DNA from: Escherichia coli
GTDB taxonomy: Bacteria; Pseudomonadota; Gammaproteobacteria; Enterobacterales; Enterobacteriaceae
NCBI RefSeq assembly: GCF_016026235.1
Contig: NZ_CP065613.1
Strand: one strand, 5' to 3'
DNA: 64,000 nucleotides
Each line of letters opens with the position of its first letter. Positions within the stretch are counted from its first letter, which is position 1. Shown here piece after piece: positions 51,001 to 54,000 of this stretch. The position numbers were made by a program.

Positions 51001-54000
51001 CCATGTTGCCACAACCCAACGGGTGCCGATCTCACTAATGACCAGTGGGATGCGGTGATTGAAATTCTCAAAGCCCGCGAGCTTATTCCATTCCTCGATA
51101 TTGCCTATCAAGGATTTGGTGCCGGTATGGAAGAGGATGCCTACGCCATTCGCGCCATTGTCAGCGCTGGATTACCCGCTTTGGTGAGCAATTCGTTCTC
51201 GAAAATTTTCTCCCTTTACGGCGAGCGCGTTGGCGGACTTTCTGTTCTGTGTGAAGATGCAGAAGCCGCTGGCCGCGTACTGGGGCAATTGAAAGCAACA
51301 GTTCGCCGCAACTACTCCAGCCCGCCGAATTTTGGTGCGCAGGTGGTGGCTGCAGTGCTGAATGACGAGGCATTGAAAGCCAGCTGGCTGGCGGAAGTAG
51401 AAGAGATGCGTACTCGCATTCTGGCAATGCGTCAGGAACTGGTGAAGGTATTAAGCACAGAGATGCCAGAACGCAATTTCGATTATCTGCTTAATCAGCG
51501 CGGCATGTTCAGTTATACCGGTTTAAGTGCCGCTCAGGTTGACCGACTACGTGAAGAATTTGGTGTCTATCTCATCGCCAGCGGTCGCATGTGTGTCGCC
51601 GGGTTAAATACGGCAAATGTACAACGTGTGGCAAAGGCGTTTGCTGCGGTGATGTAATGCAGGAAAGCAGGCTGGAGTTACCCAGCCTGCAGTGAAATTA
51701 AACTGTCGTCGCTTTCACTATTTCTTTGTAGATGATTTTTTTGATGCCGTTGTTCTACGTGAGAGATAATAAAACGTTGTCAGTTCTTTTATTGTTAAGT
51801 TTATCCCAATTATCTGGAATTCCTTTCCCTATTTTTTCGTGTGGAGTAATAATTTCTGCACATCTAACCATTATTAAATTTAATAATAAGTATCGGGTTT
51901 GTTACGATAGAATATTTCTATATCCTCAAGAATATGCTTTGCCTTATTACCTGTGACTTTCTGAGATTCAATTATAGTATCGTTAAATTCTAATGTTAAA
52001 GAGAGCTCTTTTTTCCGCTTTGTGTAAGTTTAACCTTATATTGATTACCAATATCAAATAAAAAGGTCCTGTAATGAGAATAATCACCTTTAACCTCCTC
52101 GGCAAAACAGCAAAGCGTGCAAATATACATAAAGTCTTTCTTACCCCTGATTTTGTTAACTAAATCAATAAATGCGTGAAAAACTTTACTTGCAATAGAA
52201 CTTGATACTTCTTCTCCAGGTCTACAAAAATCTTTTGCAATTTTTAACTGTGTTTCTATGTATAAAAAGAAATCTTTGGCATAAGAGAAATCTTTGGCAT
52301 AAGAGATATCTTTATTATTTAGTGCATCTAGCTCAACAGGTAAAGATGTCGTTTTGTTGCTATTCACATATGATATATTCATATCATCATCTCCATCGCG
52401 AGTAATAAAATTAATCACCATTGTAGGGTAGGGGGGCTGGTCAATCAGAAATCATCTTTATAAACTTCGATTGTTTTTGTAATGCTGTATCATTAAGTTC
52501 ATTAAATCGTACAGCAGATAAATGTTCTATCAAATTTCGCTCATTTGCAGAGGATTCATCATAATAAACGTAAAATTAATGTATCCTTACATCGAGTAAT
52601 AAACATTTTTTATACAAAAAAAGACAGGAACGTATTTACTGGGTTAAACATAATCATCCTGCTTTTCATCACAAAAACCGCAGATAATCCTTCCTTTCCC
52701 CGGCAGCTGGCGTTATGGTCAGATGGTTTTTGCAACAAATCTCACAATAAAAAGTTTCAACATACTGACTATTTAGGGAAAAATATGCGCAAGATCACAC
52801 AGGCAATCAGTGCCGTTTGCTTATTGTTCGCTCTAAACAGTTCCGCTGTTGCCCTGGCCTCATCTCCTTCACCGCTTAACCCTGGGACTAACGTTGCCAG
52901 GCTTGCTGAACAGGCACCAATTCATTGGGTTTCGGTCGCACAAATTGAAAATAGCCTCGCAGGGCGTCCGCCAATGGCGGTGGGGTTTGATATCGATGAC
53001 ACGGTACTTTTTTCCAGCCCGGGCTTCTGGCGCGGCAAAAAAACCTTCTCACCAGAAAGCGAAGATTATCTGAAAAATCCTGTGTTCTGGGAAAAAATGA
53101 ACAATGGCTGGGATGAATTCAGCATTCCAAAAGAGGTCGCTCGCCAGCTGATTGATATGCATGTACGCCGCGGTGACGCGATCTTCTTTGTGACTGGTCG
53201 TAGCCCGACGAAAACAGAAACGGTTTCAAAAACGCTGGCGGATAATTTTCATATTCCTGTCACCAACATGAATCCGGTGATCTTTGCGGGCGATAAACCA
53301 GGGCAAAATACAAAATCGCAATGGCTGCAGGATAAAAATATCCGAATTTTTTATGGCGATTCCGATAACGATATTACCGCTGCACGCGATGTCGGCGCTC
53401 GTGGTATCCGCATTCTGCGCGCCTCCAACTCTACCTACAAACCCTTGCCACAAGCGGGTGCGTTTGGTGAAGAGGTGATCGTCAATTCAGAATACTGACA
53501 GAGCGGGAGAGCGTGACACTCTCCCGAATGCTGTTTTTTTAATCACACCTTTATCCTTTCGCTGTCTTGCTGCAAACTGATTAAGAGAGTTTTATCAAGG
53601 AGCAGCACATGTGGTATCAAAAGACGCTCACGCTTAGCGCCAAATCTCGTGGGTTTCATCTGGTAACGGATGAAATTCTGAATCAGCTGGCTGATATGCC
53701 GCGCGTTAACATCGGCTTACTGCATCTGTTGCTGCAACATACCTCCGCCTCTCTGACACTTAATGAGAACTGCGATCCCACCGTACGCCACGACATGGAG
53801 CGTTTTTTCCTCCGCACCGTTCCCGACAACGGAAATTATGAGCATGACTATGAGGGAGCAGACGATATGCCTTCTCATATCAAATCCTCAATGCTGGGAA
53901 CATCGCTTGTATTGCCGGTGCATAAAGGGCGTATTCAGACCGGCACCTGGCAAGGCATCTGGCTGGGGGAACATCGCATCCACGGCGGATCGCGTCGCAT

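Follow-up and report, generated by a model that had tools for sequence, protein, structure and literature searches.

An AT-rich islet between tyrB and aphA of Escherichia coli harbors a putative orphan gene of which K-12 yjbS appears to be a decayed remnant

Examination of the spacer between the core genes tyrB and aphA in a 64,000-nucleotide stretch of Escherichia coli DNA (assembly GCF_016026235.1, contig NZ_CP065613.1; this whole stretch is hereafter called the window, and positions are counted from its first letter) led to the recognition of a putative orphan gene, the full-length form of the family to which yjbS of strain K-12 belongs. In the account that we favor, an AT-rich segment of ~1.0 kb was inserted in the E. 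coli lineage, where it would be one of two mutually exclusive occupants of the tyrB-aphA site. The segment would carry a single minus-strand gene, typically coding for 167 amino acids (aa), with its own upstream region and a 3' end at a hairpin common with tyrB. In the window, this gene would have been disabled by slippage of a tract of seven A on the coding strand to six (A7 to A6), while the number of 18-bp repeat units that it contains would shift by whole units, presumably via replication slippage. K-12 yjbS would be an allele of this gene in a further advanced state of decay. We give a probability of about 0.7 to this anatomy and evolutionary account, i.e. that of a xenogeneic accessory gene repeatedly lost via repeat-mediated indels. 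Our confidence is lower for the part of it which holds that the gene is dispensable, useful only under some conditions and largely silenced by H-NS. What the data presented below do show are the anatomy, the series of alleles and their distribution, the orphan status, a signature of purifying selection among intact alleles, and the polarity of the insertion.

Results

A truncated allele in the window

A preliminary description of this DNA, made from the sequence alone, had reported an islet of about 1.1 kb and low GC content between tyrB and aphA, which included a minus-strand open reading frame (ORF) of 141 aa. The spacer indeed measures 1,127 bp (between the last base of tyrB, 51657, and the first of aphA, 52785) with a GC content of ~31%, as compared with ~0.52 in the flanks; in 200-nt steps the values are 0.29-0.33 over positions 51700-52700 against ~0.50-0.56 in the flanking genes. 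The 141-aa ORF is likewise present, yet it is itself already a truncated allele, because alleles with seven T on the plus strand at the homopolymer tract (T7) have minus-strand ORFs which extend to 180 aa in strain 042 and to 186 aa in strain AST240.

No Shine-Dalgarno-like sequence precedes the first ATG of the ORF, at 52421. A second ATG at 52382 (MNISY...) is preceded by GGAG 8 nt upstream, and the NCBI annotation pipeline PGAP places the start at MNISY. The likely start is ATG 52382, which would give a predicted product of 128 aa in the window. Counted from MNISY, the intact gene encodes 161, 167 or 173 aa depending on the presence of one, two or three repeat units, the corresponding maximal ORFs being of 174, 180 and 186 aa.

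The change from A7 to A6 produces a -1 frameshift, which follows residue 125 when counted along the 128-aa product and residue 138 when counted along the 141-aa maximal ORF. The frame of the window then runs out at 51996 (...SGKKSSL and a stop codon) and never reaches the ...RNKPDTYY end of the intact gene. A total of 42 C-terminal residues are lost in this way, namely ELS at the frameshift and 39 residues downstream of 51996; these 39 residues (LTLEFNDTIIESQKVTGNKAKHILEDIEKFYRNKPDTYY) are still encoded in the window but out of frame, and hence untranslated, while the codon that terminates the intact ORF corresponds to 51879-51881. In the AlphaFold2 (AF2) model, the lost 42 residues form the best-predicted beta-strands and the C-terminal helix. 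From the removal of the last two strands and the helix of this model, we tentatively infer that the gene of the window is a loss-of-function allele.

The short duplication inside the ORF had been described as a 15-17 nt unit encoding SYAKDF twice. The in-frame duplication stands, with a unit of 18 nt rather than 15-17 and (I/F)SYAKD as the encoded motif. Two complete units (52270-52287 and 52288-52305) encode a stretch near the N-terminus, at the edge of a low-confidence segment in the AF2 model. An adjacent exact duplication of an 18-mer would be expected by chance at ~64,000 x 4^-18, or ~1e-6 for the window. As had been anticipated, the number of copies varies between strains: one in K-12, O157, 2c3 and LR14, two in the window, 042 and 07D18, and three in AST240. 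Since the unit is 18 nt long, any whole-unit change adds or removes six residues and keeps the frame; the repeat is a polymorphic in-frame unit and no switch.

Distribution and diversity of the alleles

When 5,426 complete E. coli genomes were searched for the spacer by megablast, at least 80% of its length was retrieved in 4,328 of them, at identities of 93-100% and with matched lengths of 1,092-1,138 bp. Indels were mapped on an alignment of six alleles, and wider alignments included 10 or 11 alleles. Allele frequencies were estimated from spread (stratified) samples of 60 rows out of 4,350-4,351 matching records and are approximate. Two repeat copies were present in 31 of the 60 rows (~51%), in agreement with the 2,216 of 4,350 records found at an identity of at least 95%. 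Single-copy alleles made up ~46% of the sampled rows, with 20 rows showing the K-12 type (one copy and a deleted C) and ~7 rows other types such as those of O157 and O55; three copies were seen in a single row (~2%).

When alleles were sorted by length, 28 rows (~47% of islet carriers) had a frame-preserving length of 543 or 525 nt, for an intact ORF of 543 nt. The K-12-type length (523 nt) accounted for 22 rows, the O157-type length (515 nt) for 4 and the window-type length (542 nt) for 3, or ~5% of carriers; two rows were split by the insertion sequence IS1 and one was a partial match. All eight frame-preserving alleles that were fetched contained uninterrupted ORFs of 174, 180 or 186 aa.

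The K-12 allele combines A6 with a deleted C and one repeat unit fewer than the window. The deleted C shifts the frame after ~46 residues and leads to the 67-aa YjbS, annotated as a 204-nt gene and uncharacterized; the earlier statement that K-12 yjbS is about half the size of the 141-aa ORF was therefore accurate. Both genes share their locus, the minus strand, an N-terminus (MNISYVNSNKTTSLPVELDALNNKDISYAKDF...) and A6, and the islet DNA is 96.7% identical. They differ by the number of repeat units (one in K-12, two in the window) and by the deleted C, so that the first ~46 residues of the two proteins align with a 6-aa indel and different frames are read beyond. The O157 allele has a 10-bp deletion at the T-run. 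Differences in ORF length are owed mainly to indels of 1 and 10 nt and not to the repeat. By alignment, K-12 YjbS is a remnant, and the window ORF a longer remnant, of a gene of 161-173 aa, and the K-12 protein is not the archetype of its family.

Over the whole islet, K-12 and the intact allele of 2015C-4498 are separated by only two single-nucleotide polymorphisms (SNPs), as against three changes in length (the slip from A7 to A6, the deleted C and the loss of a repeat unit). The A6 allele of the window is 16-17 SNPs away from both of them, and its closest relative is 07D18, which likewise has A6. The A6 tract is found on two haplotype backgrounds, 16-24 SNPs apart. The simplest reading of these alignments is that of at least two independent slips of the A-tract, or of recombination within 1 kb, together with 18-bp units having been added and lost several times. 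At this locus, indels in simple repeats accumulate faster than substitutions. The sampled alleles look clonally stable: all 16 rows with at least 98.9% identity to 042 are 543 nt long, the K-12-type rows are all 523 nt and the O157 rows all 515 nt.

IS1 was encountered in the islet of several unrelated genomes, i.e. FDAARGOS_943 and the genomes of match rows H27, H109 and H159. In FDAARGOS_943 the islet is otherwise 100% identical to that of the window, with IS1 upstream of the ORF (locus L015, ~1060-1840). The AT-rich islet appears to be a target of IS1, and IS1 insertions have also been reported in macrophage-evolved K-12 (PMC4999529).

Evidence for a protein-coding gene

Among the more divergent pairs of intact alleles, the Nei-Gojobori ratio of nonsynonymous to synonymous substitution rates (dN/dS) was 0.20-0.35. 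For the true frame, the summed ratio of nonsynonymous to synonymous polymorphism (pN/pS) was 0.31; the antisense frame sharing its wobble positions gave 0.40, and the other four frames gave 0.69-1.79. Segregating sites were distributed over codon positions 1, 2 and 3 as 5, 13 and 20 (p = 0.012). Nucleotide diversity (pi) amounted to 0.030 in the ORF, as compared with 0.067 and 0.057 in neighboring segments of the islet and 0.011-0.018 in tyrB and aphA. Finally, the chance of an open frame of 141 codons in a spacer of 31% GC is P ~0.02, and that of 180 codons ~0.001. Because dN/dS, the frame-specific pN/pS, the codon-position bias, pi and the improbable ORF length all point the same way, the presence in the islet of a real protein-coding gene under moderate constraint is supported, at the scale of a small sample of related alleles.

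Attempts to assign the long ORF product to a family with hmmscan gave no match in Pfam, NCBIfam, PADLOC or PHROGs; a match to BamG at E = 0.03 was dismissed as meaningless. Homology searches found no relatives outside E. coli and Shigella: a word-indexed search of 5.8 billion clustered proteins returned only entries from these two, of many lengths, and when 1.84 billion representatives were searched exhaustively with a HMMER profile, every match was a fragment belonging to this family. At the level of sequence similarity, the orphan protein is taxonomically restricted to E. coli and Shigella. A structure search with Foldseek gave no confident fold match, the weak top matches including type III secretion chaperones (3epu, 2bsj) and CdiI immunity proteins (5ffp, 6cp9). 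The protein lacks a signal peptide and features of surface proteins, and neither a profile match to known defence or toxin-antitoxin families nor a two-gene toxin-antitoxin architecture was found. Our guess is that of a small soluble alpha/beta protein which may work via protein-protein contacts.

The islet as an insertion with an alternative cargo

In Salmonella (L016, L018) and Kluyvera (L019), alr, tyrB and aphA are arranged as in the window with spacers of 186-199 bp. Because these relatives have only 186-199 bp at the site, positions ~51658-52660 (~1.0 kb, hairpin included) are best regarded as inserted DNA in an ancestral spacer of ~190 bp. Reliable alignment to Salmonella is confined to ~52663-52784 of the window, with a core block of 55 identical positions out of 66. 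The segment has several features of a horizontally acquired islet at an integration hot spot, i.e. absence from the site in relatives, a deviant GC content (0.31 vs ~0.52) and an alternative cargo. As for hallmarks of mobility, no integrase ORF was found and the repeats at the edges are 11-nt matches at chance level.

The region had also been supposed to be strain-variable, and the islet sequence is clearly not identical in all E. coli: in strain Nissle the tyrB-aphA site is filled by an island of 13.7 kb. This island codes for a sensor kinase, a sigma-54 regulator, a second set of 2-oxoglutarate dehydrogenase and succinyl-CoA synthetase, and a DASS transporter, and it matches the KguS/KguR island for alpha-ketoglutarate utilisation (c5032-c5041) which is located between tyrB and aphA in uropathogenic E. 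coli (UPEC) (Cai et al. 2013, PMC3694859). The Kgu junction was detected in 1,042 of the 5,426 genomes (~19%); together with the ~4,330 carriers of the islet, the two states account for ~99% of genomes. The junctions show the Kgu island in place of the yjbS islet, not next to it. Both occupy the same tyrB-aphA site and keep a segment of ~110 bp next to aphA. In contrast to the islet, the Kgu island is 13.7 kb long and has 10 annotated genes of known function; it has no sequence in common with the islet, and the two are alternatives rather than nested elements.

A scan of species representatives of the Genome Taxonomy Database for the islet outside E. coli gave a sole match, a 9.5-kb contig filed under 'Flavobacterium paronense' CECT 8460 (NZ_JAUFQN010000013.1). 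The contig is 99.2% identical to tyrB-yjbS-aphA of K-12, with differences that are all gaps; it is almost certainly contamination by laboratory E. coli and was rejected. Records of the plasmid database PLSDB that match the islet (1.0-4.9 Mb) are E. coli chromosomes, or fragments of them, filed as plasmids. The metagenome contig ERZ1745361 NODE_1519 (L017) was considered as a divergent host and also rejected, since it proved to be E. coli that has imported a segment spanning aphA-yjbQR: alr, tyrB and the islet are 98-100% identical to the window, while aphA, yjbQ and yjbR (3501-5112) are 87%, 73% and 84% identical. This pattern, noted also for the first 82 nt of aphA in L006, points to the import of a divergent segment whose breakpoint lies where the islet meets aphA. 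A cluster of AphA proteins at 91% identity (P0102, 1,573 members) may represent the same divergent allele class.

Other parts of the spacer

The features of the locus are listed in Table 1. The GC-rich hairpin behind tyrB folds with -20 and -19.2 kcal/mol on the two strands (z -3.3 and -4.3) and is followed on the minus strand by CUUUCCU. It was not called in a simple terminator scan, and its sequence is unlike that of the hairpins found at the same position in Nissle and Salmonella. It is a probable bidirectional terminator, which would serve tyrB as well as the minus-strand islet ORF.

In the fast-evolving segment 3' of the long ORF, a possible second small gene could be reconstructed as a minus-strand frame of 51 aa (MVRCAE...SSIKKE). 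The frame is intact in only one of ten aligned alleles (AST240) and decayed in the other nine, the window retaining just an open piece of 38 aa (51755..51871); its homologs are confined to E. coli and Shigella. It was therefore rejected as a second gene or as the partner of a toxin-antitoxin pair and is regarded as a decayed remnant. The 74-aa plus-strand ORF of the preliminary description is present and lies antisense to the long ORF. It has no Pfam match, and its place contains no ORF of 40 aa or more in 042 and O157 and one of 54 aa in AST240; unconserved in other alleles, it is probably spurious.

The segment 5' of the long ORF contains on its minus strand a promoter-like TTGATA-16-TACGAT (52533..52506) detected by simple scan, and probably comprises the promoter and 5' leader of the long ORF. 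In K-12 and 042, this segment also holds an ORF fragment that shares the frame of the long ORF, with a single TGA between the two. For the variable right end of the insertion, neither the Salmonella spacer nor Nissle showed reliable homology. The spacer as a whole gave no Rfam match at E <= 1.

Table 1. Coordinates of the genes and sequence elements of the tyrB-aphA locus in the window
Feature	Position	Strand	Basis
tyrB, aromatic amino acid transaminase, core gene, left flank	50464..51657	+	ORF; 1,194 nt, annotated tyrB in homologous loci
GC-rich hairpin directly 3' of the tyrB stop	51667..51690	both	folding
Fast-evolving segment 3' of the long ORF, with remnant of a second small gene	51701..51878	-	pi = 0.067, maximum of the locus
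74-aa ORF antisense to the long ORF, probably spurious	51732..51956	+	ORF scan
Out-of-frame 3' remainder (last 39 residues and stop of the intact protein)	51879..51995	-	042/AST240 alignment
Truncated allele of the islet orphan gene (full-length yjbS family)	51996..52421	-	maximal ORF, 141 aa
Homopolymer tract, T6 on the plus strand, A6 on the coding strand; 7 in intact alleles	52009..52014	-	alignment
C within GGTCTACAAAAATC, present in the window and deleted in K-12	52225	-	alignment column 568
18-nt in-frame tandem repeat, unit AGAAATCTTTGGCATAAG, 2.6 copies	52268..52313	-	Tandem Repeats Finder, 96% matches, score 85
Conserved segment 5' of the long ORF, candidate promoter and leader	52422..52570	-	pi = 0.021
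Variable right end of the inserted segment	52571..52660		pi = 0.057 over 52571-52675
Ancestral upstream/regulatory region of aphA, outside the insertion	52663..52784	+	aligned with the Salmonella spacer
aphA, class B acid phosphatase, core gene, right flank	52785..53498	+	ORF; PF03767

Discussion

The most direct challenge to the presence of a gene would be that the ORF is a mere side effect of AT-rich composition, in DNA that has an architectural or regulatory role. Such DNA could act as a promoter island for H-NS and RNA polymerase, as an insulator that separates tyrB from aphA, or as a control region upstream of aphA. The tyrB/yjbS interval of K-12 is one of 78 'promoter islands', catalogued as transcriptionally silent, marked as foreign and bound by H-NS in two ChIP (chromatin immunoprecipitation) data sets (Panyukov & Ozoline 2013, PMC3661553). 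The listed island of 318 bp, which has to lie inside the 501-bp interval from tyrB to K-12 yjbS, would overlap the coding 3' half of intact alleles by at least ~97 bp. The segment of the window is as poor in GC as these islands, the ORF is disrupted in about half of the carriers, conservation in the islet is highest in non-coding DNA, and the product has neither homologs nor a confident fold. A simple sigma-70 scan of the window segment nevertheless found six promoter-like sites against 5.4 +/- 2.4 in dinucleotide shuffles, i.e. no enrichment beyond composition, keeping in mind that the published islands were defined by another algorithm (PlatProm). The frame-specific dN/dS and the excess of third-position changes, the improbability of 180 open codons at such a composition, the fact that ~47% of carriers keep the frame open despite a stop-rich composition, and the good Shine-Dalgarno sequence before MNISY also argue for a gene, and a purely non-coding role seems to us quite unlikely.

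Two simple-sequence elements within one small ORF are reminiscent of the contingency loci of Haemophilus and Neisseria, in which a homopolymer frameshift and a variable tandem repeat are likewise found inside a small ORF. The A-tract and the 18-bp repeat could then be selected switches, by which the protein is turned ON or OFF or altered at high frequency. The occurrence of A7 and A6 on at least two haplotype backgrounds, the several changes in repeat number and the three indels gained by K-12 against two SNPs would all fit. In contrast to such loci, however, the tract is short (6-7 nt, A7 being below the length of classic phase-variation tracts), the 18-bp unit is in frame and unable to switch expression, near-identical sampled alleles are all of one length and look clonally stable, and the other lesions (deleted C, 10-bp deletion, IS1) are irreversible; the product also lacks surface features. 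Of the explanations considered here, we find phase variation the hardest to credit. Scarcely easier to accept is a protective gene that stands alone, e.g. one for an orphan immunity protein that counters a secreted or contact-dependent toxin, or for a chaperone-like or anti-phage factor, the truncated and repeat-length variants of which would reflect diversifying selection, or selection relaxed as the threat comes and goes. A small soluble alpha/beta protein in an AT-rich islet, lineage-restricted, polymorphic and often lost, would suit this role, and the weak structural matches include secretion chaperones and CdiI immunity proteins. Against it stand the lack of a PADLOC match, the lack of an adjoining toxin, secretion or defence gene, and a dN/dS below 1, which speaks against strong diversifying selection.

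A more general proposal is that intact alleles encode a functional protein of 167 aa which occurs only in E. coli and represents a new fold or family, and that its presence or absence and its (I/F)SYAKD variation are kept by niche-specific selection, e.g. for orphan immunity, anti-phage activity or host interaction. In this proposal, the product would have been overlooked because the K-12 reference is a triple-indel pseudogene and because annotation pipelines label intact alleles as 'frameshifted'. We hold it to be unlikely, if less so than the alternatives above.

We therefore retain the account of an acquired accessory gene repeatedly lost through short indels, against which several points have to be set. 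The genome database is biased toward laboratory K-12, O157 and clinical isolates, and the frequencies come from samples of 60 rows. The selection tests relied on eight non-independent alleles with 38 segregating sites. The AF2 model is weak (mean pLDDT 59), which makes the removal of a folded element by the truncation a tentative claim, and the 128-aa product of the window could retain some activity. The segment at 52422-52570 is nearly invariant among 11 alleles (pi 0.021, below the 0.030 of the ORF); it is non-coding, yet shows the highest conservation in the islet. Phage and plasmid collections yielded no phage match, no true plasmid copy and no donor. The H-NS data are for K-12 only and taken from the literature, and the case for a gene is sequence-based.

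The K-12 reference yjbS is what decay has left of a longer orphan gene; about half of the islet-bearing E. coli carry this longer gene intact, and current annotations seem to reflect this choice of reference. RefSeq/PGAP labels most of the intact alleles of 174-186 aa as 'hypothetical protein, frameshifted' (L002:1720-2262, L005:1720-2280 and L009-L014; equivalent to window 51879-52421), sometimes adds a separate coding sequence of 83 aa (WP_000275035.1), and in one case (L011) calls an incomplete partial gene. The mislabelling is apparently an artefact of reference bias, with shorter proteins such as K-12 YjbS serving as reference. A literature search by accession or locus tag found nothing on the long alleles, and mentions of yjbS in evolution and TraDIS (transposon-directed insertion-site sequencing) papers are incidental; yjbS was insertion-free in one TraDIS study (PMC5821084). 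If the orphan protein is functional, strains such as 042 rather than K-12 would be the place to look for its function.

The locus would offer a compact example of acquired AT-rich genes being lost via short-repeat slippage sooner than by point mutation, at a site with two mutually exclusive cargoes of which one, Kgu, is a known fitness island of UPEC. Its value lies mainly in annotation and population genetics; the finding is real but rather ordinary and leaves current understanding unchallenged.

Variation was also noted in neighboring parts of the region. In isolate 07D18CPO002, aphA is interrupted by IS150 (L006:2733-4102). Two small minus-strand genes of 112 and 147 aa without Pfam match are located between yjbR and uvrA in Salmonella (L016:5119-5887, L018:5122-5890) and are absent at 54386-54419 of the window. 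The alr-tyrB spacer, 252 bp long in the window (50212-50463), contains in Nissle an extra pnuC and a gene for an AAA-family ATPase (L007:15887-17445), and constitutes a second variable site.

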